Positions 15,784-39,616 of a stretch of 64,000 nt of DNA are shown here, piece by piece (position 1 is the stretch's first letter; each line of letters starts with the position of its first letter). Source of the DNA: a virus (taxonomy: Duplodnaviria > Caudoviricetes); the IMG/VR virus record IMGVR_UViG_3300021164_001175, positions 1 through 64,000 of that record. One strand, written 5' to 3'. The notes beneath the pieces are model-generated. The model saw only the letters and a program-made list of their open reading frames with translations, ran no database searches and was not told the origin of the DNA. The position numbers and the translations under genes are program-made.

Positions 15784-15817
15784 AATTTAGTAAATAGGGA
15801 TACCCTTTTTGGCGATT
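15784..15817 (-). promoter_or_regulatory. 34-bp phage promoter-like element, copy 1
   Basis: AATCGCCAAAAAGGGTATCCCTATTTAC-TAAATT upstream of AAA ATPase. Confidence 0.75.
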
Positions 15818-15853
15818 GTAAATACCCCAGCAAACACTGGGGTATCGACACAA

Positions 15854-16486
15854 CTACATCACCAATAACGCGTCACGTGCATTCTCCACTGCGAGATAGA
15901 AACTGTCGTAGTGGTCATCTTCTTTGTCGTCACTGTATGGAACGAAATCAAACTTTGCAGCACCGATTTCAATACTTCCACTAGTTGAATCAACATCAAG
16001 ACTGTATGAATTCAACAATTCGCCGTCTCGCATTTCTTGTAATCCCATGAAACCCATCCCGAGCTCTTCATAGACAATTCGGAATGTAAGTGTTGGATAC
16101 TTTGCAGATAGTTTTTCTATCAGTTCAATCGGTGGTCCCCATGCAGTGTCGAATGCATAGACAAGTTCTGTTGGTGCTTCATATACCAACTGTGTCTCAC
16201 AGTCACTCCACTTAGTTCCCCAGTTCGCAATAGACCAGTCGTACCAATCTTTGAAACCATATTTCTGACGATTGAGTTCGTACTGCTCTTCGCGCTTGGC
16301 CTGAACATCTGCGTCGCCGGCCCAACCCGATACAGTTTCTGCCAACTCTTTTGGGCATGGATAGTGATTGACGATTTTCAAACTCTCGCTTGCTGTTTCG
16401 TCTTGGACGATAACTATCTTCGCAAATTCTGCAATAAGTTTTTCGTCGCCGGTAATTTTGAGATTGTTGTTGCACCAGTTAGGCAT
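15854..16486 (-). CDS. YubB/DUF1281-like ferredoxin-fold protein
   Basis: MPNWCNN start; DWYDW...NWGTKW; FDTAWGPP; YEELG. Confidence 0.75.
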   Translation of the reverse strand: MPNWCNNNLKITGDEKLIAEFAKIVIVQDETASESLKIVNHYPCPKELAETVSGWAGDADVQAKREEQYELNRQKYGFKDWYDWSIANWGTKWSDCETQLVYEAPTELVYAFDTAWGPPIELIEKLSAKYPTLTFRIVYEELGMGFMGLQEMRDGELLNSYSLDVDSTSGSIEIGAAKFDFVPYSDDKEDDHYDSFYLAVENARDALLVM

Positions 16487-16898
16487 AAGTCACCACCCCA
16501 TGCTGCACAGTCATTGACTTGCCATCAAATACCCATCTCCACTTTTCGCCATCTTCGCCTTCCCAGTAGATGAACGACTTGTCCTCTACGAGATGACCGA
16601 TTGCGCGGAAGAACAATTCCTCTTGACCAATCTTGCTGTCATATTCGAGGTGGATGATATCCCCAGTGGGTTTATCAAACTCAGCATGAAACCCCAATGC
16701 ATCAAGTATCGCTATGAAGTCTGTGCAGGTCTCGGGATAGTTTGCATCCATCCAAGAGAACCATCTTTCGTTATTCCCCCCACCTCGCTTCTCGCTATCG
16801 GGAAGATTGTTGAGTTCGCACATAAGACGATAAGCCTCATCAAAGTTCTTCTTCTTCATTCTGAATGGCAGACATTCTGCCCTGACGTAGTAACCCAT
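16479..16898 (-). CDS. Hypothetical protein
   Basis: GGAG RBS; start MGYYVRAE; WEGEDGEKWRW. Confidence 0.65.
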   Translation of the reverse strand: MGYYVRAECLPFRMKKKNFDEAYRLMCELNNLPDSEKRGGGNNERWFSWMDANYPETCTDFIAILDALGFHAEFDKPTGDIIHLEYDSKIGQEELFFRAIGHLVEDKSFIYWEGEDGEKWRWVFDGKSMTVQHGVVTYA

Positions 16899-17018
16899 TA
16901 TGTTTCTCCGATTTCTAGTAGTTGGTACTTCGGTTCGGTTGAGCAAGTTTCTTCTATGTTGGTGGCTTGTAATTTCTCCCCAACTCTCCGAAACTCTGCC
17001 CAACCAAACCTTGATTGG

Positions 17019-17052
17019 ATATTAGTAAATAGGGATAGTTATTTTGGCGATT
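17019..17052 (-). promoter_or_regulatory. 34-bp element, copy 2, directly abutting a polar repeat
   Basis: AATCGCCAAAATAACTATCCCTATTTAC-TAATAT. Confidence 0.7.
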
Positions 17053-17254
17053 GCTTTCCGCCACCGTCAATAATAAATTGACCAGCTCGTTCAGTGCCGG
17101 CCACCGCCCTGGCGAACGTGTGTTCGCTTTCCGGACCGAACGTCTGTTCGCCCATCAGCTTGTGCGCTAGTTCATGCCGGTCGCCAAATACGGGGTGAGA
17201 CAATATGTCTTCCCCGTACTTGGCAATCAGCAATTCTCGAGTTGATTTATCCAT
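17039..17254 (-). CDS. Hypothetical protein
   Basis: Operon context. Confidence 0.5.
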   Translation of the reverse strand: MDKSTRELLIAKYGEDILSHPVFGDRHELAHKLMGEQTFGPESEHTFARAVAGTERAGQFIIDGGGKQSPK

Positions 17255-17474
17255 TGACGAATACCTGTGTCGCCATTGGTGTCATCTCGTAGACCATGTA
17301 ACCCGTCTCGTCTTGTGCGATACCAGTAACCCACATAGAGCGAGTGCCGTTACTTGCCCATGAGAAATCGCCAACTTTTACTTTGACGCTTTCTATGGCT
17401 TGTGACACTGCCTGGTTTTCATCATGAGCATTTACATCTTGTGTAACCATTGTCGTGATGCGATAGGTCTTCAT
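17247..17474 (-). CDS. Hypothetical protein
   Basis: Coupled (TAATG) to XRE gene. Confidence 0.55.
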   Translation of the reverse strand: MKTYRITTMVTQDVNAHDENQAVSQAIESVKVKVGDFSWASNGTRSMWVTGIAQDETGYMVYEMTPMATQVFVNG

Positions 17475-17707
17475 TACTTTCCTTTTTTCATCTTGATAAC
17501 AACATCTGCATTGAGCACGTCAAGAATTCGAGTGAGTGTCTCAAACGATGGCGAGAAGCGATTGTTCTCAATGCGATTTACTGTCTTTCGGTCTACGCCG
17601 GCGCGTTGTGCCAGTGCATCTTGAGATAGTTCACGGTGTACCCGTGCTTCTTTGATGATTGCTGCTAATTGCTTTTTGCCTTTTTTTACCAATGTCTTTG
17701 ATGGCAT
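17474..17707 (-). CDS. XRE-family helix-turn-helix regulator
   Basis: IKEARVHRELSQDALAQRAGVDRKTVNRIENNRFSPS. Confidence 0.9.
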   Translation of the reverse strand: MPSKTLVKKGKKQLAAIIKEARVHRELSQDALAQRAGVDRKTVNRIENNRFSPSFETLTRILDVLNADVVIKMKKGK

Positions 17708-17785
17708 GATTGCCCCTTTTCTGTTAGTTGCTTTTATGGTATTCAGGTGAGCAGGTATATTCCAACCTGCCCACTCGAAATATGT

Positions 17786-18085
17786 TTAGTCTCTGTTTTT
17801 CAGTGTCGCTTGACAGGCTTTTACAAAGTCAATGGACAGTAGATGTTCCCTGCCCTCGTAATGTTTTGGCGACAAGGCCCACTTGAGCCATCGGTCAAAA
17901 TCACGAAGCATTGGGTTATCTGTTTCGCTTGGGTCAAGGTAGCTCTTTACAAAATGTGGAAGAGTTGTCAATCCAAGTTGTTCCATGAGTCCGACAATCG
18001 TAATCATTCGGTAACCCATCATTATTGCCAATTCGTCATAGGTCATGTCCGATGGGACCGGCTCGCCCATTCTCTCGCTTGTCAC
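17786..18085 (-). CDS. Hypothetical protein
   Basis: GTGA coupling to upstream gene. Confidence 0.5.
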   Translation of the reverse strand: MTSERMGEPVPSDMTYDELAIMMGYRMITIVGLMEQLGLTTLPHFVKSYLDPSETDNPMLRDFDRWLKWALSPKHYEGREHLLSIDFVKACQATLKNRD

Positions 18086-18564
18086 GAGTTCACCTCAACT
18101 TCCTTGTGAACCAATGACACAATCTCCGAATTAGGGATTGCCTCTGCAAATACGGTCTCGTAGAGATTTACTCCGAGAATCCAATTATCTAGGAAGCCGT
18201 CACTGGCGAGTCGTACTGCATCTCCGTAGTGATACTTTGCTCGTAGCAATACTGCCGTGACTAATTGGTCGTATGGCTTGTGAGCCGTCTTGCAAAAATC
18301 AAACGTTTCACCTTCATACTGCCTGTCGATTGTTGGTATCGCTTGCCAAATAAATGATTCGTGAGACTCTGCCCGATAACCATTGAAAGCAAATCTGCCT
18401 TCATTGAATTCGTAGCCGTCAAGAGTTTCTCCACTCCAATCAGCTACAAGCAAGCCGCGAGACTTCGCTTCGTCCAGTAGTAACTTCGCATCTAGTGCCA
18501 GCCGTCCGTACTGCTCTGCAGTATTTAGTTCAGGCTTGCGATACCAGTAATGTGTATAACCCAT
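18082..18564 (-). CDS. Conserved phage hypothetical protein (MGYTHYW...FCKTAHKPYD)
   Basis: AAGGAG RBS; upstream TTGACA-17bp-TAAGTT promoter. Confidence 0.7.
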   Translation of the reverse strand: MGYTHYWYRKPELNTAEQYGRLALDAKLLLDEAKSRGLLVADWSGETLDGYEFNEGRFAFNGYRAESHESFIWQAIPTIDRQYEGETFDFCKTAHKPYDQLVTAVLLRAKYHYGDAVRLASDGFLDNWILGVNLYETVFAEAIPNSEIVSLVHKEVEVNS

Positions 18565-18624
18565 AATCTTTCTCCTTGTCTAGTAAGTGGTACAAACTTA
18601 GTTCAGTGAAATCCATTTGTCAAA

Positions 18625-19140: not shown

Positions 19141-19169
19141 AATTTTTCTCCTTAGTAGTAGGTAATTTG

Positions 19170-19203
19170 ATAGTAACAAATAGGGATTTACTTTTTGGCG
19201 ATT
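19170..19203 (-). promoter_or_regulatory. 34-bp element, copy 3
   Basis: AATCGCCAAAAAGTAAATCCCTATTTGT-TACTAT then ACCTACTA leader and AAGGAG. Confidence 0.75.
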
Positions 19204-19348: not shown

Positions 19349-19506
19349 GCCAATCCCCTTTTTACTAGTAGTGCATCAACTTTTTTTTCTACTCGCGCAA
19401 TTCCAACTTCGTCACCTTTTGATACATATAACAAGTAGAGGTCTACCAATTCCTGTATCTCATCAAGACGTGCTTTTGACTCTGCATATTCCGTTTTGTT
19501 TGTCAT
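19345..19506 (-). CDS. Small leaderless hypothetical protein
   Basis: ATG 6 nt after the -10 box of element copy 4. Confidence 0.6.
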   Translation of the reverse strand: MTNKTEYAESKARLDEIQELVDLYLLYVSKGDEVGIARVEKKVDALLVKRGLA

Positions 19507-19512
19507 ACCAGT

Positions 19513-19587
19513 AATGTAGCAAGTCGGGATAGGCTTTTTGGCGATGCCGGCCCAATCGCCAAAAAGGGTATATCTATTTGCTAGTAT
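19513..19587. promoter_or_regulatory. Divergent pair of 34-bp elements (copy 4 minus 19513-19546; copy 5 plus 19554-19587)
   Basis: -10 boxes TACATT and TAGTAT; marks a strand switch. Confidence 0.8.
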
Positions 19588-19617
19588 CAATTCACCTACT
19601 AGAACGAGGAGAGCGAA

Positions 19618-19968
19618 ATGAACGCAACGATTGAAGAGATGTTTGAGGATGTAAAGGAAGCGATGAATTCGGCAAAGCTTGTCGCATTCGATGGCTGCCA
19701 CAAAATCTATCTTGCGATGGATGACGAGCAAGCCGAGTGGTTCAAGAAGCACTACAACGGTGCAGATTGCACTGACCGAAACTTCACATCTTCACCCGAA
19801 GAAATGTTGAAGATGGTTCGTGAGTGGTGGGATGAGTCTTGTGGACTCCGATTCATAAATGCAGTGGAGACAAATGAAGAAGACCCAAATGCTGGGTTCA
19901 CTACACTGATTCCACAAGGTGCAGGTGAAGACGAAGTTGAAGAAGACGAAGAAGAAGACGAGGAATAG
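19618..19968 (+). CDS. Hypothetical protein with acidic tail
   Basis: AFDGCHKIYL motif; GAGGAG RBS. Confidence 0.7.
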   Translation: MNATIEEMFEDVKEAMNSAKLVAFDGCHKIYLAMDDEQAEWFKKHYNGADCTDRNFTSSPEEMLKMVREWWDESCGLRFINAVETNEEDPNAGFTTLIPQGAGEDEVEEDEEEDEE

Positions 19969-19976
19969 GAGACAAC

Positions 19977-20351: not shown

Positions 20352-20415
20352 CATCCACCACTTTTGTTGTTGGTTGCGCTAATTTGGTTAGTACCTACTA
20401 AACAAGGAGAACGAG

Positions 20416-20968: not shown

Positions 20969-21340
20969 ATGACTGAACTGAAGTTGCTGAAGAAGATAAT
21001 TGAATGCGATGCTTGTGGCGAGTATTACGAAGCCGGCAGCCAGGAATTTATCTTTGACAATGGTTGGGTGATGAAGTCAAAACAGTTCGGATACTACGGT
21101 GGCTTTGATGATGAGATGTTCGCCGATGAAGATGAAGAACGAGATGATTGGTTCATGTGCCACGATTGCATTGTTGTTCTTCTAGAGACGTTCCCAAAGC
21201 TCGGCGCGACTGTCGGCAAAGGTTCTCACCCATGTGAAGACGAGACACCATGCTGTCAGTGGGCATGGAGAAGTTCCGGAGACACTCTCCAATTAGCAAA
21301 CATGGAATTGGAGTGGGTCGATGTTGGCCCACCTGTATAA
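20969..21340 (+). CDS. Cys-rich hypothetical protein
   Basis: CDAC...CHDC; TAA overlaps element copy 6. Confidence 0.6.
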   Translation: MTELKLLKKIIECDACGEYYEAGSQEFIFDNGWVMKSKQFGYYGGFDDEMFADEDEERDDWFMCHDCIVVLLETFPKLGATVGKGSHPCEDETPCCQWAWRSSGDTLQLANMELEWVDVGPPV

Positions 21341-21373
21341 ATCGCCAAAAAGCCTATCCCTATTTAGTAATCT
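21340..21373 (+). promoter_or_regulatory. 34-bp element, copy 6
   Basis: AATCGCCAAAAAGCCTATCCCTATTTAG-TAATCT. Confidence 0.75.
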
Positions 21374-21405: not shown

Positions 21406-21861
21406 ATGGGTTTAGACCAGTACCTTTATGCCAAGAAATACACTTCCCAAACTTATGCACGACCTGACCAGTTCGCTGTTCTTGCAGGTGCAATCGGTGA
21501 GGACATGAAGTTCATCACTAAAGAAAGTCCAAGCATCTCCGTTGAGATGAAAGTCGGTCAATGGCGAAAAGCCAATGCAATTCACTCATACTTCGTGGAC
21601 AACTGTCAGGGTGGCGAAGATGATTGCCGCGAAAGTTATGTGGACAGAGAAAAACTTGTAGAACTACTTGACTTGTGCAAGCAAGTTCTCGCTGACCACT
21701 CAAAAGCAGATGAGTTGCTATCAACTCAATCAGGTTTCTTTTTTGGCTCAACGGAATACGGCGAGTGGTACTTCCAAGACTTAGAGGACACCGTAAGCAT
21801 CATTGAGAATTGTCTCTCAATGGGAGATGACTGGTCGTTCTACTACCAATCGTCTTGGTAG
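21406..21861 (+). CDS. Conserved phage hypothetical protein (MGLDQYLY...WRKANAIH...GFFFGSTEY)
   Basis: AAGGA RBS; recognisable phage family motifs. Confidence 0.75.
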   Translation: MGLDQYLYAKKYTSQTYARPDQFAVLAGAIGEDMKFITKESPSISVEMKVGQWRKANAIHSYFVDNCQGGEDDCRESYVDREKLVELLDLCKQVLADHSKADELLSTQSGFFFGSTEYGEWYFQDLEDTVSIIENCLSMGDDWSFYYQSSW

Positions 21862-21902
21862 AGAGTTCCAACAATTCGACCCACAACAACAAGGAGAGAA
21901 AT

Positions 21903-22175
21903 ATGATTACCATGAAAGACCAAACATTACGAGTTGGCAGCACGTTGCTCAATGGCGCGACAGTAGTTGCTTGCACGAAATCCGGCGAGCGAGTAGAGAA
22001 CGAAACTCTTGCGAACTGGATTGCAATTTGTGTGAGAGGTGGAGACAACCATGACGATTATGTTGTATGGCGAATTGCCGCGACAGAAAAGGGTTTCTCT
22101 GCCGAGAGTGGCGACTACTCAAACACTCTCACGGAAGCCATTGAGAACTATGAACGTCGTGGGGGCAAGCTCTAA
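21903..22175 (+). CDS. Hypothetical protein
   Basis: AAGGAG RBS; TAA overlaps element copy 7. Confidence 0.6.
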   Translation: MITMKDQTLRVGSTLLNGATVVACTKSGERVENETLANWIAICVRGGDNHDDYVVWRIAATEKGFSAESGDYSNTLTEAIENYERRGGKL

Positions 22176-22208
22176 ATCGCCAAGAAGGGTATCCCTATTT
22201 TCTATACT
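22175..22208 (+). promoter_or_regulatory. 34-bp element, copy 7
   Basis: AATCGCCAAGAAGGGTATCCCTATTTTC-TATACT. Confidence 0.75.
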
Positions 22209-22628: not shown

Positions 22629-22853
22629 ATGGACACCAACATAAACGACTACCTCAATAACAACCTCAATGAGGTTCTGCAAGTTCCATTCGCATTGAGT
22701 GGCGCAACGTGGTCAGTGATTATTGAGACACTCGAATCTTCTATTGACTTCATCATCAAAAGCAAAAATCCAGGCTTGGCAGCAGAGCTTGGCGACTTCA
22801 GAGACTTGGTAATGAAATCCATAGACCTCTCCATCGGAAAGGAGACAGCGTAA
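22629..22853 (+). CDS. Hypothetical protein
   Basis: AAGGAG RBS. Confidence 0.6.
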   Translation: MDTNINDYLNNNLNEVLQVPFALSGATWSVIIETLESSIDFIIKSKNPGLAAELGDFRDLVMKSIDLSIGKETA

Positions 22854-22984
22854 TGGCCACAGTAATCGTTACCGAAGACGGAAAGCTTCTTGATAAAAAG
22901 GGCAGAGAAATCGTAGACAGCGACAAGTTGGACGAACTCACAAAAGCATTTTTGGAAGCATGGAACTCCGGCAAAGAAGAGTAA
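22853..22984 (+). CDS. 43-aa hypothetical protein (below cutoff)
   Basis: AAGGAG RBS, TAATG coupling; TAA overlaps element copy 8. Confidence 0.55.
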   Translation: MATVIVTEDGKLLDKKGREIVDSDKLDELTKAFLEAWNSGKEE

Positions 22985-23016
22985 TCGCCAAAAAGGGTAT
23001 CCCGAATTATTAGTCT
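22983..23016 (+). promoter_or_regulatory. 34-bp element, copy 8
   Basis: AATCGCCAAAAAGGGTATCCCGAATTAT-TAGTCT. Confidence 0.75.
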
Positions 23017-23380: not shown

Positions 23381-23806
23381 ATGTCTATTCAAAAGAAAGA
23401 TGTTCAATCGTTTCGTGATGAAATGATGAAAGCACTAGAGCCAGTGCTGCAAAAGTTCGGATACGAACTCACCAAGAGCAATGCAACTTATTCAGACACA
23501 TTCATCAAGTATGCACTCACTGTCTCATTGAGCGACAAGAGTGACAACGGAGTGAACATGTCGGGCGAGTATGCAGATGCATACAAGCAGATGGGACATA
23601 TGTACGGACTAGTTCCGAACTTGTTGGGCAAGGAGTTCATCACGAATGGTCGCTCAATGGCATTCGCCGGCATCGCAAGCAAGAGGTCAAAGTACCCATT
23701 CGCCGTAGTTGAAGTGTCTACTGGCAAGCATTACTTCATTCAGGACACAGATATTGTCAAGGAGAAGTTGAATGGGAGACCACTGATAGATGTTACAAAG
23801 AAGTGA
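23381..23806 (+). CDS. Hypothetical protein
   Basis: GGAG RBS; RSKYPF motif. Confidence 0.6.
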   Translation: MSIQKKDVQSFRDEMMKALEPVLQKFGYELTKSNATYSDTFIKYALTVSLSDKSDNGVNMSGEYADAYKQMGHMYGLVPNLLGKEFITNGRSMAFAGIASKRSKYPFAVVEVSTGKHYFIQDTDIVKEKLNGRPLIDVTKK

Positions 23807-24048
23807 GAGAGCCAAGTTTTGATTGCATGGATTGTGGAGTAGACACTGTTGAAGGTGACTACTTCATGATTCATGATTGGCTATGGCACCAGGTGGCCGG
23901 CGATAGGCATGAGGAGATGCTCTGCATTGAATGTACCTCAATACGTCTAGGTCGAAGCTTGAGAGAAGAAGACTTCACTGATTGCAGTCTCAATTACTCA
24001 ATGGGGTTCAAATCGCCAAGAAGTGTATCCCGAATGGCTAATATCTAA
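23803..24048 (+). CDS. Cys4 zinc-binding hypothetical protein
   Basis: CMDC...LCIEC...RLGR. Confidence 0.6.
   Translation: MREPSFDCMDCGVDTVEGDYFMIHDWLWHQVAGDRHEEMLCIECTSIRLGRSLREEDFTDCSLNYSMGFKSPRSVSRMANI
24011..24044 (+). promoter_or_regulatory. 34-bp element, copy 9 (leaderless ATG at 24051)
   Basis: AATCGCCAAGAAGTGTATCCCGAATGGC-TAATAT. Confidence 0.75.
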
Positions 24049-24845: not shown

Positions 24846-26810
24846 ATGAACGTTCTCAGTCTTTTTTCCGGCGTGGGTGGCTTTGACATGGGCCTTGAGG
24901 CGGCGGGTTACAAAACAATATTTCAATGCGAATGGGACAAAAACTGTCAAAAGGTATTGAACAAGCATTGGCCTGATGTCCCAAAATGGGGAGATGTCTC
25001 AACACTCACTGGAGAGCACATTATTCGCGCATCAGGTCCACCGGATGTCGTTGCATGGGGAAGCCCGTGTCAAGACATGTCCGTTGCCGGCAAGCGTGCT
25101 GGTCTCGAGGGTGCCAAGTCGGGACTGTTCCACGAAGGAATCAGAATCATCAAGGAAATAAGGGAGCTAACAAACAATGAATATCCAAGAATCTCTATAT
25201 GGGAGAACGTCCCAGGAGCACTCTCTTCCAACAGAGGTGCTGACTTCGGGGTCGTCCTTGACGAAATGGCAAAAGCAGGGGCGTTGGTCGTCGAATGGGC
25301 CGTCCTGGATGCTCAATTTTTCGGAGTGCCCCAGCGCCGACGCCGCATTTTTCTCACAGCTCTCTTCAATCCTAGAGATGCCGAGCAATGTGGATTCAAA
25401 ATTTTTCCTGTCTCCGAAAGCTTGCCAGGGGATTTTGCGTCGCGCGCAAAGAAGAGGAAAGGAACTGCCGCCGGTTCTCCTCGAAGCACTGAATCGAGTA
25501 GCCAACCGAGCGCCTTTGGAAACTCCGGAATGGAAAAATGGGGAGACACCGAAGTAGCAATCACGTTGTCTGCGCGTGACTTCAAGGGCGGCAATACTGT
25601 CGTAATCGAAGGAACTCCATTAGCGCAAGAGGCTTTCACGAAGTCCCGACATGCGAAGGACTCAGAGGATTTTGAAACGTGGGTGCCAGGGGAAGTGTCG
25701 CCCACGTTGAATACTTTTGAGAATCACCAAGACACCCGTGCGACAGTTGCCATCGTGCAGCCGGAAGCTCTCGTTATTGACGGGACTAGGAACGATGATG
25801 TGCGCGTTTACGATGACGGAATCTCTCCAACGTTGACGCATCGAATGGGAACCGGAGGAAATAACACTCCGATGATTTTTGATGAAAGAAAGCCTAATTC
25901 TCCAATCGTCCTGGACAGAGCGGCGTTCAATCAAGGCCCAAATGCGCAGTGGGAGCCGCTGATGGAAGAAGCTGAATCCGTTCCGGCACTCGTTGCGCGT
26001 GGACCACATGCCGTGCTTGATACGTCGGGACTGTCTGATGAGATTGTGTTTGAACCTGGCGCGATGTCTCGAATGAAGTCCGATTATTACTCAGACAAGC
26101 TTGCACCAACGTTGCGTGCGAACATGGGAGATAATCAGCCGGCTGTAACTCAGCGTCTTGAAGCTACACCAATCCAAGATGGCCGTGAGATGGAAAAGAG
26201 TCAAAATGGGTTGGGAATTGGCAGCCCAGGTGACCCGGCGTACACGCTCGATACAACCGGGGCTCAAGCTGTTGCATTCTCGATACGTGAAGATGCAAAA
26301 GCTAACAACTTCAGCGCAAATGAGATTGAAATAGCTAATGCACTCCAGGCTCTTCAGCCGGCAACAACTTCGCATCATGCGCAGACACTCATTGCTCAGG
26401 ATGGAGTCCCGATTCACTCGTTTGACACTCAGTTTGGCTCGAATGCCGCAGTGTTTGAGAATCAGTCCCCAACTCTGAAGGCTTCACAACAATCGCCATC
26501 CGTTGCATACGTTTATGATGGATACAACCAAAGTGTTGATGATTCCGGAATCCATCGTTCGCTTCGCGTTGGTCGAGACTCAGGTGACTTCGTTTCAGAC
26601 TCAACGATGGTAGTGAGACGTTTGACGCCCCTGGAATGCGAGAGACTTATGGGATGGCCTGAGAATCACACCAAGTATGGGGCCGGCGATGAACTTATTG
26701 CCGATACTCAGAGATACAAGATGTGTGGCAATGGAGTTGCAAGTCCAGTAGCTAAATGGGTAGGCGAAGTATTGCTCACTACCTTAGGGGACAGCAAGGT
26801 CGAGGCTTAG
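24846..26810 (+). CDS. C5-cytosine DNA methyltransferase with a long repeated variable region
   Basis: Motif I LFSGVGG, IV GSPCQD, VI ENVPG, VIII QRRRRIF, IX RRLTPLECERL, X GNGVA. Confidence 0.92.
   Translation: MNVLSLFSGVGGFDMGLEAAGYKTIFQCEWDKNCQKVLNKHWPDVPKWGDVSTLTGEHIIRASGPPDVVAWGSPCQDMSVAGKRAGLEGAKSGLFHEGIRIIKEIRELTNNEYPRISIWENVPGALSSNRGADFGVVLDEMAKAGALVVEWAVLDAQFFGVPQRRRRIFLTALFNPRDAEQCGFKIFPVSESLPGDFASRAKKRKGTAAGSPRSTESSSQPSAFGNSGMEKWGDTEVAITLSARDFKGGNTVVIEGTPLAQEAFTKSRHAKDSEDFETWVPGEVSPTLNTFENHQDTRATVAIVQPEALVIDGTRNDDVRVYDDGISPTLTHRMGTGGNNTPMIFDERKPNSPIVLDRAAFNQGPNAQWEPLMEEAESVPALVARGPHAVLDTSGLSDEIVFEPGAMSRMKSDYYSDKLAPTLRANMGDNQPAVTQRLEATPIQDGREMEKSQNGLGIGSPGDPAYTLDTTGAQAVAFSIREDAKANNFSANEIEIANALQALQPATTSHHAQTLIAQDGVPIHSFDTQFGSNAAVFENQSPTLKASQQSPSVAYVYDGYNQSVDDSGIHRSLRVGRDSGDFVSDSTMVVRRLTPLECERLMGWPENHTKYGAGDELIADTQRYKMCGNGVASPVAKWVGEVLLTTLGDSKVEA
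25177..25557 (+). CDS. Nested +1-frame ORF inside the methyltransferase (putative second MTase polypeptide)
   Basis: GGGAG RBS; LSSILE...KFFLSPKACQGILRRAQRRGKELP resembles an MTase-associated segment. Confidence 0.55.
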   Translation: MNIQESLYGRTSQEHSLPTEVLTSGSSLTKWQKQGRWSSNGPSWMLNFSECPSADAAFFSQLSSILEMPSNVDSKFFLSPKACQGILRRAQRRGKELPPVLLEALNRVANRAPLETPEWKNGETPK

Positions 26811-27777: not shown

Positions 27778-27811
27778 ACCTTAGTAATTAGAGACACCCT
27801 TATTGGCGATT
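27778..27811 (-). promoter_or_regulatory. 34-bp element, copy 10
   Basis: AATCGCCAATAAGGGTGTCTCTAATTAC-TAAGGT. Confidence 0.75.
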
Positions 27812-28040
27812 ACTCGCAATCCTGATACTCGTATTCCTCAGCACCATTGAACATCTCGTCCCAACATTCAGGATGAGTGCCAGTGATGAGTTGCTCGCGC
27901 AATGGTGCAGACAACTCCGGAAATGCATCCTGAATATATGCACCCGCAGCTCGCAATGACAATCCGTCACTGCTCACCTGAAGTTCGCCAAGTTCGCCAC
28001 AATGCATACAACGTTTGGTTTCGACAGTCACAATATTCAT
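27810..28040 (-). CDS. Conserved small phage protein (CxxC...IQDAFPELS...REQLITGTHPECW)
   Basis: AAGGAG RBS; TAA overlaps element copy 10. Confidence 0.7.
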   Translation of the reverse strand: MNIVTVETKRCMHCGELGELQVSSDGLSLRAAGAYIQDAFPELSAPLREQLITGTHPECWDEMFNGAEEYEYQDCE

Positions 28041-28069
28041 CTCGTACTCCTTGTTTAGTAGGTGAAGTA

Positions 28070-28148
28070 ATCATAGTAAATAGGGACATACTTATTGGCG
28101 ATTAGCTCCGGCCCAATCGCCAAAAAGGGTATCTCTAATTTGTACAGT
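28070..28148. promoter_or_regulatory. Divergent pair of 34-bp elements (copy 11 minus 28070-28103; copy 12 plus 28115-28148)
   Basis: -10 boxes TATGAT and TACAGT; shares the CCGGCCC spacer with the 19.5 kb pair. Confidence 0.8.
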
Positions 28149-28155
28149 AATGGGT

Positions 28156-28386
28156 ATGAACACACCAACACTTACATTCACATTGGCAGGCGAGTCCACT
28201 TCAGTTCGTGAACTCTCGTACAACAATCAGTTGTTGTTCGTGACATTCACTTCGGGAGTGACTTACTGTTACTACGATGTGCCGCTAGAAGCCGTCAAGG
28301 CAGTTATCGGTGCAGACTCAATCGGTTCTGCACTTCATCACAACATCATCAGCCAGCCATTCGCGTTCCAAAGACTGGAACGATAA
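28156..28386 (+). CDS. KTSC domain protein
   Basis: STSVRELSY...LFVTFTSGVTYCYYDVP...ADSIG. Confidence 0.75.
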   Translation: MNTPTLTFTLAGESTSVRELSYNNQLLFVTFTSGVTYCYYDVPLEAVKAVIGADSIGSALHHNIISQPFAFQRLER

Positions 28387-28634
28387 TGGCTACTGGTGTT
28401 GATTTCATCACCCGTAGGGAGTTGTTGCGAGAACATCTCTCTACGGGTCACTACCCACCACTCTCTGAACGTTTCATCGAAGTTGCCGAGACTGCATTAG
28501 ACCATCTCGCGGCAACCGATAATGAAGGTGCAGAAATCATTCTCCCAAATGGAATTACTTTCTACGGTTCAGACACGGCTATCGTGGAACATGTAATAGA
28601 GTCACTCCACTTGTGGGACTTCATAAGCAACTAG
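28386..28634 (+). CDS. Hypothetical protein
   Basis: HL..GHYPP...IESLHL; TAATG coupling. Confidence 0.6.
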   Translation: MATGVDFITRRELLREHLSTGHYPPLSERFIEVAETALDHLAATDNEGAEIILPNGITFYGSDTAIVEHVIESLHLWDFISN

Positions 28635-28648
28635 ACCAAGGAGAAATC

Positions 28649-29113
28649 ATGTACACATTGTTAGAAAAAGCGAAAGTATCAGAAGCGTTCATTTACCAAG
28701 AGCTTGGTGAAGAACGATTCGGAAAGCAAGCGAAGTTGTATTCACTTGCCGAGACAGAATCCGGTGATATTGACATAAAGATGGAAAAATCAGGTGTCGA
28801 TATCTACGAAGTTGTGGAATCTTCTCATGCCCGTAAAATTGCAAAGAAATCAAAGTACATCATCATCGTTACTACTGGTTGGGCCGCACCTTTGCCACAA
28901 GACCCCGATGACAAAGATGACATAAACAATCATGTAACACCATCTCAACACCCTGAACGTCGCCGTTGCCTTGTAACGGTCATCGCAGGTGAAGAAGGTG
29001 TCGCGTCTTGTGTCAGGTTCTCTGATTCAGATGAAGTTGTAGTCGATGAGGGCAAAGCCCGTGGTTCATTGGCAGAGTCAATCCATAAACTATGGGAAGG
29101 CTCTAGGGCGTAA
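28649..29113 (+). CDS. Hypothetical protein
   Basis: TGWAAP...PSQHPERRR; AAGGAG RBS; TAA overlaps element copy 13. Confidence 0.65.
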   Translation: MYTLLEKAKVSEAFIYQELGEERFGKQAKLYSLAETESGDIDIKMEKSGVDIYEVVESSHARKIAKKSKYIIIVTTGWAAPLPQDPDDKDDINNHVTPSQHPERRRCLVTVIAGEEGVASCVRFSDSDEVVVDEGKARGSLAESIHKLWEGSRA

Positions 29114-29145
29114 TCGCCAAAAAGGGAATCCCGATTCTGTACACT
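29112..29145 (+). promoter_or_regulatory. 34-bp element, copy 13 (leaderless ATG at 29152)
   Basis: AATCGCCAAAAAGGGAATCCCGATTCTG-TACACT. Confidence 0.75.
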
Positions 29146-30570: not shown

Positions 30571-32430
30571 ATGGATGCGGCTACCTATGTCCTGATGCTC
30601 CAGGATGACCATTTAGTACTCGATTTTGCTTACGACGCAGCCCAGGTGGCCGAGATAAAGCTCATTCCAGGCTCAAAGTGGGACAAAGTAGCTAAAGTTT
30701 GGCGCGTACCGGCAACGAGTATCCGGTTAGCTCGAGAGTTCTGTCAAAAACACGGCCATTCGATTGCCGGCGACGTGCTGCGTTTGACGGTCCCGGACCA
30801 AGGTGGTAGCACGGGACTATCGCTAAATGGTGAATTTATCTTCTTAACGTTTGCGTATGACCCGGTAAAAGTGCGCAGCGTTAAACAAATACCTGGAATC
30901 ACCTGGCACGCAAAATCGAAAGCCTGGAGAGCGCCGCTAACGTCGATTAAAACTGCAATAAAGTGGGCCGAAACATTCAAGCAGCACATTCCGGCTGACC
31001 TGGTCGAAGCGGCTGAAAACGTCGAAAATAGCTTAAATAATCTTCGAGAAGCCTCCCGGTCGACAGACGCGGCGTTGAAGCTGGATGGTTTTACGGGACT
31101 AATGGCGTATCAACGTGCCGGAGTCGAGTACGCAGCGCGCGCACGTAAGTGTTTCATAGCTGACGAGATGGGGCTGGGAAAGACGCTGCAAGGCATTGCC
31201 ACGCTCGAGTTAGTAGCGCAGAAATTCGATTGTTTTCCGGCAGTAGTTATGTGTCCGGCTAACCTGGTACTGAACTGGGAAAAAGAGTACGCAAAGTGGG
31301 CTCCCGGTCGACGTGTAAAAATAGTGAAAAATCGAAAGGAATTCCCGGCACCAGGCAGCTACGACGTGGTTGTTGTTGGTTATAGCAATATAACTACCTG
31401 GGAGAAGCAGCTTACCGGGGCAAATGCGTACATTTTTGACGAATCTCACTATCTGAAGAGCTTTACAGCGCAGCGCACAAAGAGCGCATTGAAGATGACT
31501 AAGAATCTTCGCCGCGAAGTCCCGATATTATGCCTTACCGGAACACCCGTAACGTCAAAGCCGGCTGAATATGCGGCTCAACTCGAGATTCTCGGCCAGC
31601 TGAATAAGTTTGGTGGAAAGTGGGGCTTTTATCGAAGATATTGCGCTGCGTTCCAGGACAAATACGGCCAGTGGCACCTGGACGGTAACTCAAATCTTGA
31701 TGAATTAAACGACTTGCTGCGCTCGACGTGTTATATCCGGCGTACAAAAGCGCAAGTTCTTACAGATTTACCCCCGGTTCTACACTCGATTGTTACGTTC
31801 GAGGGGGCTGCTGCAGCCGTTAAGGAATATCGAGCGGCTGAAGATGACGTTACGCAGTTTCTACGGGACAACAGCGGCGCTGATATGCCCACGCAGCTAG
31901 CCAGGATAAGTATTCTTCGCCGATTAGCCGCTCAGGCGAAGATGCCGGCTGTAATCGAATGGGTCCAGGAACGTGTCGACGCTGGTAAGAAGGTTGTAAT
32001 TGCGGCCCACCATCGGGACATTGTTGATGCATTGGCGCAACGTTTCGGCGGCCTGAAGATACAAGGCAGCATGACTGTCGAGCAAATCGAAGAGAATAAG
32101 AAGATATTCCAGGAATCGAGCGTTATCGAAGCTCCGGTAATCGTTCTTTCGATACAAGCGGCGAAGACCGGGCACACATTGACTGCAGCTCAAGACATTT
32201 TGTTTGTCGAGCTCCCCTGGACACCGGCTGATGTGCAGCAGACATTTAGCCGGCTACACCGTATCGGCCAGTTAGGGAGCGTTACAGCCACGTATGCGCT
32301 GCTTGAGAACTCCATTGACGAGGATATCCACCGACTCCTAGAGCGAAAGCTAACAGTTGTTACTGAAGCAATCGATGGAGCCAGTGGTCAGGAGGTTATC
32401 CTCTCGCTACTTGGCAGGAGAAGCCAGTAG
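30571..32430 (+). CDS. SNF2-family (SMARCAL1/HARP-like) helicase
   Basis: Two N-terminal HARP-like repeats (IPG.KW....KxW), ADEMGLGKT, DESH, LTGTP, IRRTK, QTFSRLHRIGQ. Confidence 0.9.
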   Translation: MDAATYVLMLQDDHLVLDFAYDAAQVAEIKLIPGSKWDKVAKVWRVPATSIRLAREFCQKHGHSIAGDVLRLTVPDQGGSTGLSLNGEFIFLTFAYDPVKVRSVKQIPGITWHAKSKAWRAPLTSIKTAIKWAETFKQHIPADLVEAAENVENSLNNLREASRSTDAALKLDGFTGLMAYQRAGVEYAARARKCFIADEMGLGKTLQGIATLELVAQKFDCFPAVVMCPANLVLNWEKEYAKWAPGRRVKIVKNRKEFPAPGSYDVVVVGYSNITTWEKQLTGANAYIFDESHYLKSFTAQRTKSALKMTKNLRREVPILCLTGTPVTSKPAEYAAQLEILGQLNKFGGKWGFYRRYCAAFQDKYGQWHLDGNSNLDELNDLLRSTCYIRRTKAQVLTDLPPVLHSIVTFEGAAAAVKEYRAAEDDVTQFLRDNSGADMPTQLARISILRRLAAQAKMPAVIEWVQERVDAGKKVVIAAHHRDIVDALAQRFGGLKIQGSMTVEQIEENKKIFQESSVIEAPVIVLSIQAAKTGHTLTAAQDILFVELPWTPADVQQTFSRLHRIGQLGSVTATYALLENSIDEDIHRLLERKLTVVTEAIDGASGQEVILSLLGRRSQ

Positions 32431-32437: not shown

Positions 32438-32665
32438 CTAATGAATATCGGTTGTGATGTCAATCGTTTCTTCGTCTATCTCGTTGTCGGCATCAATGTC
32501 CTCAAACTCATCTCTAACGAAGATGGCATTGTTGTTTAGCCAAGTGCCCTTGTCGTCAATGCCCCACTCGTCCCACTCGTGTGGAAGTGGTTCTTTCAGG
32601 TCATAAGTGATGTAGCGATTTTGTGTTGATATTCGCCGCTCGACATTGGTGACATAGTAAATCAT
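32438..32665 (-). CDS. Hypothetical protein
   Basis: Operon context, AAGGGA RBS. Confidence 0.5.
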   Translation of the reverse strand: MIYYVTNVERRISTQNRYITYDLKEPLPHEWDEWGIDDKGTWLNNNAIFVRDEFEDIDADNEIDEETIDITTDIH

Positions 32666-33095: not shown

Positions 33096-33160
33096 AGTAT
33101 AGAGAATAGGGATACCCTTTTTGGCGATTCGCCAAGAAGCCTGTCCCTACTTACTACTAT
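33096..33160. promoter_or_regulatory. Overlapping divergent pair of 34-bp elements (copy 14 minus 33096-33129; copy 15 plus 33127-33160)
   Basis: Central TTGGCGATTCGCCAA; -10 boxes TATACT and TACTAT, both followed by leaderless ATG. Confidence 0.8.
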
Positions 33161-33373: not shown

Positions 33374-33812
33374 CTTCGTAGCAACAACTGTTTCAACCGA
33401 TGGGTTCACGGTGAATTACCTTGACCCAATCCGATTGGACCGACAAGACCCGGCATGGTATGTATGGGACATCAACTGTCATCAGCTTGTCGCCTCTGTA
33501 TTCAAGCAGGACAAGACTGTCTACATCTATTGTGATGGAGAGATGCGAATCCATGCTTGGGAGGACGGTTCAATGAAGCACAAAGACTCTCAATACTCGG
33601 TTATTCGTTACTGTGACCAACTCGAAGAGAACGGAATCAAAAACGACCTAGATTTGATTGCAGCTGAACCACGAATTGAAGTTCAGAACAATGCATGGTT
33701 TGATTTGTACGGCGACTTCGTTGATGGTGAGTGGTTTGATTGCGTAAACCACAGCCTTGGTGATGCGATTGACCAAGCAAAGGTACTAATCAATGAGGAA
33801 TTAGCCAAATAG
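33348..33812 (+). CDS. Hypothetical protein
   Basis: Long ORF in operon; start uncertain. Confidence 0.6.
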   Translation: MRTEMNLSDFVATTVSTDGFTVNYLDPIRLDRQDPAWYVWDINCHQLVASVFKQDKTVYIYCDGEMRIHAWEDGSMKHKDSQYSVIRYCDQLEENGIKNDLDLIAAEPRIEVQNNAWFDLYGDFVDGEWFDCVNHSLGDAIDQAKVLINEELAK

Positions 33813-33849
33813 TTATATAAATCTGTATAGTGATACCCAGGGAGGGCAT

Positions 33850-34544: not shown

Positions 34545-34553
34545 AAAGAGAGT

Positions 34554-35525: not shown

Positions 35526-35602
35526 GTTTGCTTCCCCTTTTCGTAGGTGTTAGTATTACACCCTAGCAAGAAACCAACCCGATATCTAAATAAGGAGAAG
35601 AA

Positions 35603-36034: not shown

Positions 36035-36115
36035 CAAAAACGCCTCCTTGGCGTAGGTAAGTGTGTCCCATCAGTTGTTTCCGGAACGTGCAACTGGTGG
36101 GATTACACTTTATAA

Positions 36116-36520: not shown

Positions 36521-36543
36521 GTTCCGACACGAGGGGGAAGTAA

Positions 36544-36939: not shown

Positions 36940-38660
36940 TAGGTATTGATGACTTTCTTGGCCGCTTTGAGGGCGTAAAAGGCGGCAACAATCAGTGGCA
37001 AGCGCAGTGCCCTTGTCGAAATGATGACCAAAACCCGTCGTTAGCCATTGCGTACAAAGATAATCGAATCCTGGTGAACTGTTTTCGCGGCGCTAACGCG
37101 TGCAGCGCGCAAGAAATATGTGAAGAAGTTGGTATATCTATATCTGAGCTAATGCCGGATAAGCCAAAAGAGCAAAAACTGTCAAAAGTTGCTGAATATG
37201 ACTACTACGACGAAGCCGGGGAGCTGTTATTTCAGAAAGTTCGTTACGTTGACCAAGACGGAAGGAAGACATTTCGCCAACGCCGTCCCGTTGAGGGTGG
37301 ACAATGGGTCTATTCACTCGGTGATACGCCTAAAGTTCTCTACAATCTCCCCGCAGTGCGTGCGGCCATAGCAAGCAACACGCCTATCTATGTTGTTGAG
37401 GGTGAAAAGGACGCAGACATACTCATTTCACGTGGATTAGTGGCTACGACGATGCCTGGAGGCGCTGGGAAGTGGTTAGAAATCCACACAATGGCTCTTG
37501 TGGGCGGGACTATAGACATTGTTGCAGATAACGATGAAGTTGGTCATCAACACGCCGCTGATGTATTCAGAAAGTTGAAAGAAGTTGGCTGCGACGTAGC
37601 TTTATGGCGCTGTCCATCAAAAAAAGACGTTTATGACCACCTGGCTGCCGGCCTAAAGCTAGAAGAATTGATTCCTTTAGACCCGGAAGGTCTGATTACG
37701 TCAGAAACACCCGTAGATGCGGCTGAAACCGAAGAAGTCCCGACAGAAGTGAACCTCTTGACGCAGGCTATTGAGAAAATAGCTATCACATTGATGAACT
37801 CGGAGCTTTCACCGCAACAAAAGTTGCTAAAAGCAGCACTTATTTCGACTAGCGCAGCCACAGCGCAGCCGCTCGACACCGGGAGATTAGTAAATTGGCA
37901 AGATTTTGTCAATGAGGAGATGTCATCGAAGCCAAATTGGATTATCGAAGGCGTATTAGAAGCGCAAGAACGTGTAATTGTTGTTGCGGCTGAAGGCGTT
38001 GGCAAGACAATGCTCGCTCGACAGGTCGCAATCCTTACCGGGGCTGGTATTCACCCATTTACGTTCCAACCAATGGAGCAACGCCGCGTGTTATTCGTTG
38101 ACCTGGAGAACCCGGAACGCATTATTCACAAAATGTCAAAGCAAATCTTTGATGACGTAGCAAAAGTTGGTTGGGTAAAGAATGTAACAGCTGAACTCTG
38201 GATGAATCCATCGGGACTGAACCTGTTACACGCGCCTGATAGGCAAATACTTGAGGAAAAGATAGAACAAACACGTCCGGAACTCATTTGCTTGGGGCCG
38301 CTGTACAAGAGCTTCGTTGACCCAGGCGGCAGAACGTCTGAATCAATCGTTGTAGAGATTGCTAAGTACTTTGATTACATTAGAACGGTATATAACACTG
38401 CATTGTGGTTTGAACACCACGCACCACTCGGTTCGACCATGGCTACCCGTGACCTCAGGCCGTTTGGTTCAGCAGTATGGTCGCGTTGGCCAGAGTTTGG
38501 TCTTGCAATGACGCCAGTCCCGACAGGAGAGCCATACGTTTACGAGATACGGCACTTCAGAGGTGCTCGAGATGAGCGCGCTTGGCCATCATTGATAAAG
38601 CGCAGCCCACGTCCTGGGGGCCGCTTCCCATTTACAGTGTTAGAATATCTAAAGGTATGA
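36936..38660 (+). CDS. DNA primase-helicase (zinc finger + Toprim + AAA_25/RecA-like)
   Basis: CPC..D.NPSL...CF...C; VVEGEKDA; DNDEVG; AAEGVGKT; DLEN; PFGS. Confidence 0.88.
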   Translation: MIGIDDFLGRFEGVKGGNNQWQAQCPCRNDDQNPSLAIAYKDNRILVNCFRGANACSAQEICEEVGISISELMPDKPKEQKLSKVAEYDYYDEAGELLFQKVRYVDQDGRKTFRQRRPVEGGQWVYSLGDTPKVLYNLPAVRAAIASNTPIYVVEGEKDADILISRGLVATTMPGGAGKWLEIHTMALVGGTIDIVADNDEVGHQHAADVFRKLKEVGCDVALWRCPSKKDVYDHLAAGLKLEELIPLDPEGLITSETPVDAAETEEVPTEVNLLTQAIEKIAITLMNSELSPQQKLLKAALISTSAATAQPLDTGRLVNWQDFVNEEMSSKPNWIIEGVLEAQERVIVVAAEGVGKTMLARQVAILTGAGIHPFTFQPMEQRRVLFVDLENPERIIHKMSKQIFDDVAKVGWVKNVTAELWMNPSGLNLLHAPDRQILEEKIEQTRPELICLGPLYKSFVDPGGRTSESIVVEIAKYFDYIRTVYNTALWFEHHAPLGSTMATRDLRPFGSAVWSRWPEFGLAMTPVPTGEPYVYEIRHFRGARDERAWPSLIKRSPRPGGRFPFTVLEYLKV

Positions 38661-39298
38661 ACGACAAGAACAAAGTGATGAACCGAGAGTTCCTGGCTGA
38701 ACGGGACTACCGTATATTCGCCATGAAGAAGGCTGGACTCGGCGTTCGAGAGATTGCCCGACGTTTTGACATGACTACGGCGGCTGTAAACAAGGCAATT
38801 CAGCGGCAACTGGCCAAGATGAACCAGGAAGCGCAGCTAAATTACTCAGAAGTTCTACGTTTAGAGCTTGAGCGGCTTGATGCGCTGCAGTCAGCTATCT
38901 GGCCAATGACACAAAATCGAAAAGTAACGTCAGATGATGGCAAAGAAGTGCAAATCGAACCGGAAATCAAAGCAATTCAGCAAGTTTTGTCGATTATGGA
39001 CCGGAGAACGAAGCTGCTTGGTATGGATAATGTCAATATCAACGTACAAATGGACGTCCAGGAGAAGCAAGGGAACATTATCAAAGCAACTCTTGCCAAT
39101 CAGCAGGGTATGGCGGCTGGAGCTAACCAATTTAGTCCCGAAGAAGACGCACGTAAGCTGCTTGCCCTCATGGCCGCTTCTGGAGTGCTACCTGAAAGCA
39201 TACTCAATCAACTACTGTCAGGTAGTGAAGCAATCCAGGACGCAGAACTTGTGGAGAGTGATGAAACAATCGAAATCTATCCAAGAAGCAATGGCTGA
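38657..39298 (+). CDS. HTH protein, terminase-small-subunit-like
   Basis: GLGVREIARRFDMT HTH; ELERLDALQSAIW...IMDRRTKLLGMD. Confidence 0.55.
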   Translation: MNDKNKVMNREFLAERDYRIFAMKKAGLGVREIARRFDMTTAAVNKAIQRQLAKMNQEAQLNYSEVLRLELERLDALQSAIWPMTQNRKVTSDDGKEVQIEPEIKAIQQVLSIMDRRTKLLGMDNVNINVQMDVQEKQGNIIKATLANQQGMAAGANQFSPEEDARKLLALMAASGVLPESILNQLLSGSEAIQDAELVESDETIEIYPRSNG

Positions 39299-39584
39299 AG
39301 TGGTCGAAGACATGACACCACAGGATATGAACGTAAAACCAGTGGCCGTCACAGAAGATGGCGATAGTCCCGCTGATAAACAAGTCATTGTGCGGCTAAC
39401 TCTCGAAGAACGTGAGAACTGGAAGGCGGCTGCAGAGAAGAACGGCCAAACATTGTCTTCTTTTATCCGGGATTTATGTAACGCGCGTGCAGAAGACCTA
39501 CTTGTTTGTTCGCACCCGGTAAATCAACGTAGATTTTACCCTTGGGCCGAGTTCTGCATCAAGTGCAGCTCAAGGTTGAGGTAA
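39261..39584 (+). CDS. Ribbon-helix-helix (CopG-like) protein with C-terminal zinc motif
   Basis: VIVRLTLEERENWKAAAEKNGQTLSSFIR; TAA overlaps element copy 16. Confidence 0.65.
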   Translation: MKQSKSIQEAMAEVVEDMTPQDMNVKPVAVTEDGDSPADKQVIVRLTLEERENWKAAAEKNGQTLSSFIRDLCNARAEDLLVCSHPVNQRRFYPWAEFCIKCSSRLR

Positions 39585-39616
39585 TCGCCAAAAAGGTTGT
39601 CCCTAATTTGTAAGAT
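39583..39616 (+). promoter_or_regulatory. 34-bp element, copy 16 (leaderless ATG at 39623)
   Basis: AATCGCCAAAAAGGTTGTCCCTAATTTG-TAAGAT. Confidence 0.75.

Follow-up and report, generated by a model that had tools for sequence, protein, structure and literature searches.

At the middle promoters of phage T4, a MotA box replaces the -35 element and is read by MotA together with an AsiA-remodelled sigma-70, an arrangement known as sigma appropriation. Promoters of the T7 type (T7, T3, SP6) extend from -17 to +6 and lack a sigma-type -10. The PeSL elements of T4-type phages combine a sigma-70-like promoter with a stem-loop terminator and are associated with element-bounded indels and mini-circles (Arbiol et al., 2010, PMC2839356; Comeau et al., 2014, PMC4122927), and the stoperators of Cluster A mycobacteriophages are asymmetric sites of ~13 bp, present in tens of oriented copies per genome, the consensus of which shifts with the cognate repressor (Mavrich and Hatfull, 2019, PMC6550527; PMC9283540). 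In Mycobacterium tuberculosis, mapped promoters have a TANNNT hexamer centred 7–12 bp before the start and no conserved -35, and 26% of the genes are leaderless (Cortes et al., 2013, PMC3898074). Here we describe a 34-bp element present in 16 copies in a 64-kb stretch of phage DNA, hereafter the window, which comprises the first 64 kb of the 93,135-bp IMG/VR record IMGVR_UViG_3300021164_001175 (G000; 63% complete as estimated by CheckV). The element is very probably a promoter, as judged from its sequence, with an actinobacterial-type -10 hexamer preceded by a near-invariant upstream sequence, the box. Multi-copy phage promoters are well known; what is new is a family-wide architecture of fixed geometry, the upstream half of which is rewritten at every copy between close relatives.

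Copies, register and start geometry

A weight matrix was built from the 16 copies and run over the whole record and 20 shuffled versions of it. Each copy scored 40–50 bits, no site in the record fell between 12 and 27 bits, and the shuffles gave zero to one match above 12 bits. A preliminary description of the window had reported 16 full copies with the TAnnnT hexamer always at positions 29–34, no TTGACA-type -35, and genes ending flush against the element, and these observations were confirmed: all copies are present (Table 1), the hexamer keeps its register in 16 of 16, no TTGACA-type sequence was found at a spacing of 16–19 nt from the hexamer, and the TAA of the upstream open reading frame (ORF) overlaps position 1–2 of the element in 7 of the 10 non-divergent copies. 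Its description of the element as promoter-like and phage-specific also held. A generic sigma-70 scan recovered none of the 16 elements, giving 20 matches with 26.8 expected by chance. The 9-mer AATCGCCAA by itself occurred 40 times at no more than one mismatch versus 17.4 ± 4.2 in shuffles, and an exact occurrence at 17366 (+) is not an element.

Conservation was specific to position. Positions 1–13, 17–23, 29, 30 and 34 are near invariant across the 16 copies (20 of the 28 positions upstream of the hexamer), whereas 14–16 and 31–33 vary freely. Simple duplication or gene conversion of recent date would have made the variable positions uniform as well, which is not observed, and the conserved positions are therefore likely to be under selection. 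The spacing within the three divergent pairs is 7, 11 and -3 bp, which leaves no fixed dimeric architecture.

A gene start lies ahead of all 16 copies at a distance of 7–47 nt. In seven copies an ATG is found exactly 6 nt past the hexamer and in an eighth (28115+) at 7 nt, and leaderless mRNAs are therefore predicted for these eight. In six copies the leader ACCTACTAnAACAAGGAG, of the form ACCTACTA..AAGGAG, begins 6–7 nt past the hexamer and is followed by an ATG after 6–8 nt; this leader occurs nowhere else in the record. The two remaining copies, 15817- and 17052- (both named here by their 5' ends), have other leaders. The predicted start, taken as the A of the ATG or of ACCTACTA, lies 7 nt past the last base of the hexamer, or 8 nt in two copies, a geometry that fits the M. 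tuberculosis definition of a TANNNT centred 7–12 bp before the start (PMC3898074).

Two further arrangements of the element were seen. Two bidirectional modules, 19503–19622 and 28036–28159, are inverted copies of one another of ~125 bp with ~74% identity, 8.5 kb apart, each consisting of one leaderless arm and one arm with the ACCTACTA leader. A box-only half copy (AATCGCCAAAAAG, 27 bits) followed by unrelated sequence is located at 81483–81516 (+) of the record, 17.5 kb past the end of the window, in a short gap between a 670-aa gene and the start of a 3,975-aa late polyprotein gene and on the opposite strand to the latter; the factor that binds the box, whatever it is, could use it as a regulatory site. 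Other structural interpretations of the element were rejected. A hairpin of the N4-like type (AGGG-TAT-CCCT) can pair in 8 of the 16 copies only and shows no compensatory change. The element is asymmetric, without terminal repeats, and no integrase was found, which does not fit a miniature inverted-repeat transposable element or an integron. A test for integron attC sites failed likewise, attC being a palindromic site located 3' of promoterless cassettes and accompanied by an integrase, whereas the element is asymmetric, lies 5' of genes and carries a promoter.

Box dialects in related phages

The full element gave one match in 185,579 species genomes and is therefore not a host motif. In IMG/VR and the JGI metagenomes it was limited to near-identical relatives of this phage, nine freshwater contigs with 96–99.6% identity, in which the elements are conserved. 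A motif scan of IMG/VR returned 26 loci, of which L015 was the sole true relative, the others being single chance matches. Megablast of 15.5–40 kb of the window against 50,697 GenBank phages gave no match, and protein matches were limited to primases of Arthrobacter, Gordonia and Microbacterium phages at ~30% identity. As judged by these matches and by its two WhiB genes, the phage is an actinophage, apparently a lytic freshwater one of ~150 kb.

More distant relatives were obtained through neighbouring genes. A search with the AAA ATPase returned 53 loci and a family of ~130–170 kb phages that includes three complete relatives, G005 (150.9 kb, terminal repeats), G007 (172.5 kb) and G008 (160.4 kb, terminal repeats). 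A search with the methylase gave 63 loci, none with the element, the gene being promiscuous; G005 was also obtained in this way. In addition, the contigs L035, L036 and L037 cover 31–43 kb of the window at 87–93% nucleotide identity.

In L035 and L036 the box differs from that of the window at all three orthologous sites, with AATWTTC..AAGGTTAYAYCG in place of AATCGCC..TCCCTA. The sites correspond to 33096- and 33127+ in L036 and to 39583+ in L035/L036, with the sequences AATATTCAGAAAGGTTATACCGAGTTACTACTAT, AATATTCAAGAAGGTTATACCGACACCCTATGAT and AATTTTCTARAAGGTTACATCGGGTTGYTACYAT. Positions 4–6 and 19–23 are rewritten alike at the three sites, while the length, the hexamer and the register of the ATG are kept; the dialect of the L036 type is known from these three sites only. 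A scan with the L036-type box found only L035, L036 and one unrelated contig.

The same behaviour was seen on a larger number of sites between G007 (box TTGTAAATCTGATATCG, 29 copies) and G008 (box TTGGAAATTTGGTATCG, 27 copies), the boxes of which are related to each other. A comparison of 16 orthologous promoter pairs showed exactly three switched positions in the box (in 16/16, 12/16 and 15/16 pairs), with 0/16 differences at the remaining box positions and at the T, A and T of the hexamer, whereas the flanks and the 7-nt stretch separating box from hexamer vary independently from site to site. In G005 the promoter has the form GCGCCGAAGGAT-N10-nAnnnT-N6-ATG, with ~20 copies between 104.7 and 133.2 kb, 12 of which are found at no more than one mismatch versus a calculated ~0.7 by chance. 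Promoters precede the orthologous AAA ATPase, 16479, 29152 and 23048 genes in both G000 and G005 and their boxes differ; the G005 ortholog of the 29112+ promoter is also of the leaderless type, with its own box. L162 carries the box ATTATTGCCTGTAAGGT in 16 copies behind a GGTTGnc -35-like hexamer, L171, L148, L138, L159, L168, L151 and L150 likewise have boxes of their own, set at a constant distance from the hexamer, and L133 and L172 each have another box. Nearly every lineage thus has its own box of 10–30 copies at a fixed offset before TAnnnT-N6-ATG or the ACCTACTA leader, and the spacing from box to hexamer is invariant inside every lineage.

Because the boxes switch coordinately between lineages, a sequence-specific reader that differs by lineage is indicated, and we consider it likely that a lineage-specific factor, whether positive or negative in sign, reads the box. 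The ACCTACTAnAACAAGGAG leader, unlike the boxes, is kept in the distant relatives G005, L125, L126, L133, L146, L150 and L160, so that something conserved presumably reads it, either the ribosome or the polymerase in its initial transcribed region. A further repeated promoter unit of ~75 bp was noticed in L155 (positions 256–7387 of IMGVR_UViG_3300027848_000009), with a conserved CCTGTGGATAAnT..TTCTTTGC block upstream of AGGTTGTGATTG..CTAATAAC..CAnACT, and CTGTGGATAA recurs in L155, L160, L161 and L165.

Predicted transcription units and neighbouring genes

The coordinates of the 16 copies are given in Table 1. They head units of 1–6 genes that encode a C5 methylase, a SNF2 helicase, an AAA ATPase and many small ORFs without assigned function; the methylase (24846–26810) is the last gene of the unit headed by 24011+ and the helicase (30571–32430) the last of that headed by 29112+. 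An adjacent unit without the element encodes SSB, WhiB, a primase/helicase, a helix-turn-helix (HTH) protein and a ribbon-helix-helix (RHH) protein. From the genes served and this adjacent unit, the region is taken to be the early/replication region of the phage.

Table 1. The 16 copies of the 34-bp element in the window, with matrix scores and the geometry of the adjoining genes
Position	Strand	Score (bits)	Predicted leader type and start codon	Upstream end and other features
15784..15817	-	49.9	44-nt leader; ATG 15739 of AAA ATPase gene 15008-15739 (Pfam AAA_5)	
17019..17052	-	40.9	short leader to gene 16479-17003	overlaps 3' end of gene 17039-17254
19170..19203	-	43.2	ACCTACTA leader from 19163; ATG 19140	upstream TAA over position 1-2
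19513..19546	-	40.3	leaderless type; ATG 19506, 6 nt after hexamer	divergent partner 19554
19554..19587	+	44.6	ACCTACTA leader from 19594; ATG 19618	divergent partner 19513
21340..21373	+	47.9	ACCTACTA leader from 21381; ATG 21406	TAA of gene 20969-21340 ends on position 1
22175..22208	+	47.9	ACCTACTA leader from 22215; ATG 22240	TAA of gene 21855-22175 ends on position 1
22983..23016	+	46.6	ACCTACTA leader from 23023; ATG 23048	TAA of gene 22853-22984 overlaps
24011..24044	+	43.5	leaderless type; ATG 24051, 6 nt after hexamer	inside 3' end of ORF 23803-24048
27778..27811	-	43.4	leaderless type; ATG 27771, 6 nt after hexamer	TAA of gene 27810-28040 overlaps
28070..28103	-	42.7	ACCTACTA leader from 28063; ATG 28040	divergent partner 28115
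28115..28148	+	45.7	leaderless type; ATG 28156, 7 nt after hexamer; in-frame ATG also at 28150	divergent partner 28070
29112..29145	+	42.9	leaderless type; ATG 29152, 6 nt after hexamer	TAA of gene 28613-29113 overlaps
33096..33129	-	47.2	leaderless type; ATG 33089, 6 nt after hexamer	3-bp overlap with divergent partner 33127
33127..33160	+	41.2	leaderless type; ATG 33167, 6 nt after hexamer	ATTCGCCAA variant; divergent partner 33096
39583..39616	+	45.1	leaderless type; ATG 39623, 6 nt after hexamer	TAA of RHH gene 39291-39584 overlaps

The divergent intergenic region 35526–35602, located ahead of the SSB-WhiB-primase-HTH-RHH unit, has no element and contains a TAGTAT hexamer and an AAGGAG Shine-Dalgarno (SD) sequence; the unit could be expressed independently of the 16 element promoters. 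At its end, two long overlapping ORFs at 38582–39584 resolve into the HTH gene (38657–39298), with weak matches to Sigma70_r4_2, Mor and HTH_38 and to PHROG 645, and the RHH gene (39291–39584), the product of which combines a ribbon-helix-helix domain with a Cys/His-rich tail behind it. The two genes follow immediately on the primase/helicase and are conserved throughout the family.

A second polar motif, TGACGGTGGCGGAA(AG), was found in 10 minus-strand copies at 9667–17069 of the window (17069, 12621, 12233, 11864, 11584, 11187, 10791, 10371, 10061 and 9667), usually after TT(T)A(T/A) and before a start codon, and resembles a TGA stop followed by an SD-like GGTGG/GGAAAGG. The copy at 17069 directly abuts the upstream side of element 17019–17052. 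TGACGGTGGCGGAA is conserved across the phage family, with 5–11 copies per 20-kb locus, and in relatives it often lies 5–8 nt upstream of the lineage-specific box. The window also carries two tRNA genes at 7879–8032 (-), Asn-GTT and Arg-TCT.

Proposed reading of the box and comparison with known systems

In the reading that we favour, the multi-copy promoter would split the early/replication region into 16 short transcription units. TAnnnT at positions 29–34 most likely serves as the recognition site of the host RNA polymerase, carrying its primary sigma factor; initiation would follow 6–7 nt downstream, in eight copies at the A of the ATG, giving a leaderless mRNA, and in six at the A of the ACCUACUA..AAGGAG leader. 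The upstream 23 bp, in which AATCGCCAAaAAG covers roughly -40 to -28 and TATCCCTA roughly -25 to -18, would stand in for the -35 hexamer. A protein particular to the lineage, probably specified by the phage, would read this sequence at a set distance from the -10 and recruit the polymerase or redirect it, so that every lineage in the family would have its own dialect of box and reader. The logic would be that of sigma appropriation at T4 middle promoters. Two lines of reasoning point this way. Region 4 of sigma-A is highly conserved in the phylum (PMC13013590), and the host sigma factor therefore cannot be the lineage-specific reader; the strict spacing between box and hexamer in every lineage suggests composite recognition with a -10-bound polymerase, which favours a positive reader over an occluding repressor. 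Phage WhiB-like proteins bind region 4 of sigma-A (PMC13013590), so that a remodelled reading of the -35 region is plausible in this phylum. We put the chance that the factor reading the box acts positively at close to, or just short of, even, and the whole reading, a multi-copy promoter with its upstream 23 bp read by a positive factor in the manner of sigma appropriation, stands at even odds.

Several observations weigh against this reading, among them the outcome of the search for the reader. At E ≤ 1, neither G000 nor the complete G005 gave a match to sigma-70 region 2 (PF04542), and the only sigma-like trace in G000, itself 63% complete, was a sub-threshold region-4-like HTH at 38696–38821. 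The preliminary description had proposed an activator and named WhiB (36544), XRE (17474) and HTH proteins as candidate regulators; a lineage-specific reader remains likely because relatives switch the box coordinately, but none of the named proteins co-varies with the box. The sigma-r4/Mor-like HTH protein (38657–39298) has an identical N-terminal, DNA-binding domain in the window and in the L036-type contigs and shows no difference over 198 aa between G007 and G008, although their boxes differ. The substitutions of the RHH protein (39291–39584) occur in a relative of the same dialect as well; both proteins were rejected as the specificity reader. The HTH of XRE 17474 is identical in G007 and G008. 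WhiB 36544 is a weak lead, its C-terminal tail differing between window/L106 and L035/L036 and being identical between G007 and G008. No DNA-binding family was revealed when 30 small proteins, either divergent or core, were scanned against Pfam and PHROG, so that no reader emerged from the WhiB, XRE, HTH, RHH and sigma searches or from these proteins. A single-subunit phage RNA polymerase was not noticed among the scanned proteins, although no dedicated search was made for it. Furthermore, actinobacterial promoters often run on the -10 alone (PMC3898074), so that a missing -35 by itself demands no activator; the box, at -40 to -18, lies inside the polymerase footprint, where repressors also bind; and L162, L138 and G007 retain a TTGnnn -35-like hexamer, the lineage-specific part there being mostly spacer.

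These last three points are equally those that would be expected if the box were an operator. Promoters might fire with host polymerase on the -10 alone as soon as infection has occurred, a phage repressor later binding the box at all copies to shut the early genes off or to exclude superinfecting relatives, with box and repressor co-evolving. The boxes, asymmetric, 13–17 bp long, present in 16–29 oriented copies per genome and switched coordinately in close relatives, resemble the co-evolution of repressor and stoperator (PMC6550527, PMC9283540); the box-only copy at record position 81483 lies just upstream of the late polyprotein gene, and competition among co-infecting relatives would be a natural driver of dialect divergence. 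The preliminary description had seen no integrase, and indeed neither a Phage_integrase nor a Resolvase match was found in G000 or in the complete G005, G007 and G008, so that an immunity repressor of the temperate-phage type is improbable. In addition, every full copy stands in strict register with the -10, which an occluding repressor would not need, the HTH of the sole XRE protein does not co-vary, and no repressor was found among the XRE, RHH, HTH and WhiB proteins compared. We consider repression through the box unlikely. Still less probable, in our view, is that no reader exists and that the copies are strong constitutive promoters for host polymerase alone, kept uniform by duplication and gene conversion (concerted evolution). 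The failure of the searches to find a reader agrees with this, as do hybrid boxes in G007 and G008 (for example TTGGAAATCTGATATCT) and the similarity of up to ~125 bp of flanking sequence between copies (19503–19622 versus 28036–28159), which makes exchange conceivable. However, free positions (14–16, 31–33) have invariant neighbours, and G007 and G008 switch three box positions only while adjacent non-box positions differ per site, where conversion tracts would have homogenised both; nor can a conserved sigma-A region 4 (PMC13013590) account for different boxes in phages of 87–93% identity.

A role of the elements as recombination joints for the gain, loss and shuffling of small genes, as proposed in the preliminary description by analogy with PeSL (PMC2839356, PMC4122927), is unlikely. 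In its favour are the genes ending flush on 7 of 10 copies and the single-gene unit 27810–28103, which is flanked by two direct copies. Comparison of relatives added two extra genes (~680 bp) inserted in L036 precisely after promoter 33127+ and before the ATG of gene 33167, the absence from L035/L037 of a 47-aa gene after promoter 39583+, and units of promoter and gene that stay together between G000 and G005 while their order is scrambled (15817-/133167+, 17052-/131987+, 29112+/118758- and 22983+/120478+). However, both of the element-adjacent indels break at the start codon, on the downstream side and not inside the element, and that at 39583+ shows ATGAAAAcC microhomology between two gene starts. 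Only 2–3 of ~8 indels abut the element, at its ATG side (L015/L035/L036/L037/L109), and others in the same relatives fall at ordinary gene boundaries (32457–32664, 33781–33849 and 40271–40377). Of the 18 gaps between G007 and G008, eight begin or end no more than 25 nt from a promoter; by our own arithmetic promoters stand at ~40–60% of the gene boundaries there, so that the count is the one expected under the null, and L125 versus L126 gave the same picture. Gene order in the region is scrambled between G000 and G005 at almost all boundaries, whether they carry an element or not, the nine close relatives of 96–99.6% identity are fully collinear, and neither a stem-loop nor a recombinase was found. 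The joint role is thus unsupported beyond the gene-boundary null, because the high density of promoters at gene boundaries predicts about the same breakpoint counts. This negative matters in its own right.

Returning to a positive reader, a bolder form of this reading, which we advance tentatively and regard as doubtful, is that a family of large lake actinophages runs its early genes on private, fast-switching promoter dialects. A new phage protein without sigma or HTH signature, possibly delivered from the virion with the DNA, would take over recognition of the -35/spacer region on host RNA polymerase, and phages of 87–93% identity would already be transcriptionally orthogonal, the reader co-evolving with 15–30 promoters. 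It is unusual that boxes switch while the searches found neither a sigma factor nor a co-varying regulator, and the family-wide switching of dialects is the part most worth following up. A specific reader, should there be one, would represent a novel means by which actinobacterial phages capture host RNA polymerase and would provide orthogonal sets of leaderless and leadered promoters for a phylum of industrial and medical importance; if the reading is true, the family would hold a naturally occurring collection of orthogonal promoter/factor pairs for Actinobacteria and would show sigma appropriation in a new form. The elements in any case map 16 predicted transcription units and exact predicted start codons for ~60 small genes, so far without annotation, of this uncultured lake phage.

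Compared with the known systems, the element shares with PeSL that many copies of one early-type promoter lie in a hyperplastic region of small genes, the content of which differs among relatives. The analogy drawn in the preliminary description fails, however, on the stem-loop terminator and on the sigma-70-like type of promoter: there is no stem-loop terminator and no sigma-70-like -35, breakpoints lie near the element about as often as the gene boundaries would lead one to expect, and both the host phylum and the phage lineage differ. The 50 nt upstream of the copies had a mean fold energy of -10.4 kcal/mol versus a background of -8.5 ± 3.7 kcal/mol, terminator-like sites were found at chance level only, and a clean upstream hairpin was present at 15784- alone of the 16 copies. 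That strong hairpin (ATACCCCAGTGTTTGCTGGGGTAT, 15822–15845, minus strand) occupies the 36-nt gap just upstream of element 15784–15817.

The likeness to stoperators lies in oriented, asymmetric sites with coordinated switching of the consensus between related phages, with no co-varying XRE, RHH, HTH or WhiB protein found here. Stoperators, however, lie mostly off promoters, without -10 register, in temperate phages with integrases, whereas every full copy of the element is a predicted promoter and no integrase was found. With the T7 group the element shares many near-identical promoters per genome and a specificity that differs among relatives, but it has a sigma-type -10. It is like actinobacterial leaderless sigma-A promoters in its TAnnnT 6–7 nt before the predicted start, in the ATG start of half of the copies and in having no TTGACA; the host promoters have no conserved upstream sequence, whereas the upstream half of the element is near invariant and lineage-specific. 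T4 middle promoters share with it a host-type -10 at a constant distance from a phage-specific box that takes the place of the -35, and a WhiB-like protein could play a part like that of AsiA. In contrast to MotA boxes, the box described here is longer (~23 bp, from -40 to -18), and its dialects change between close relatives.

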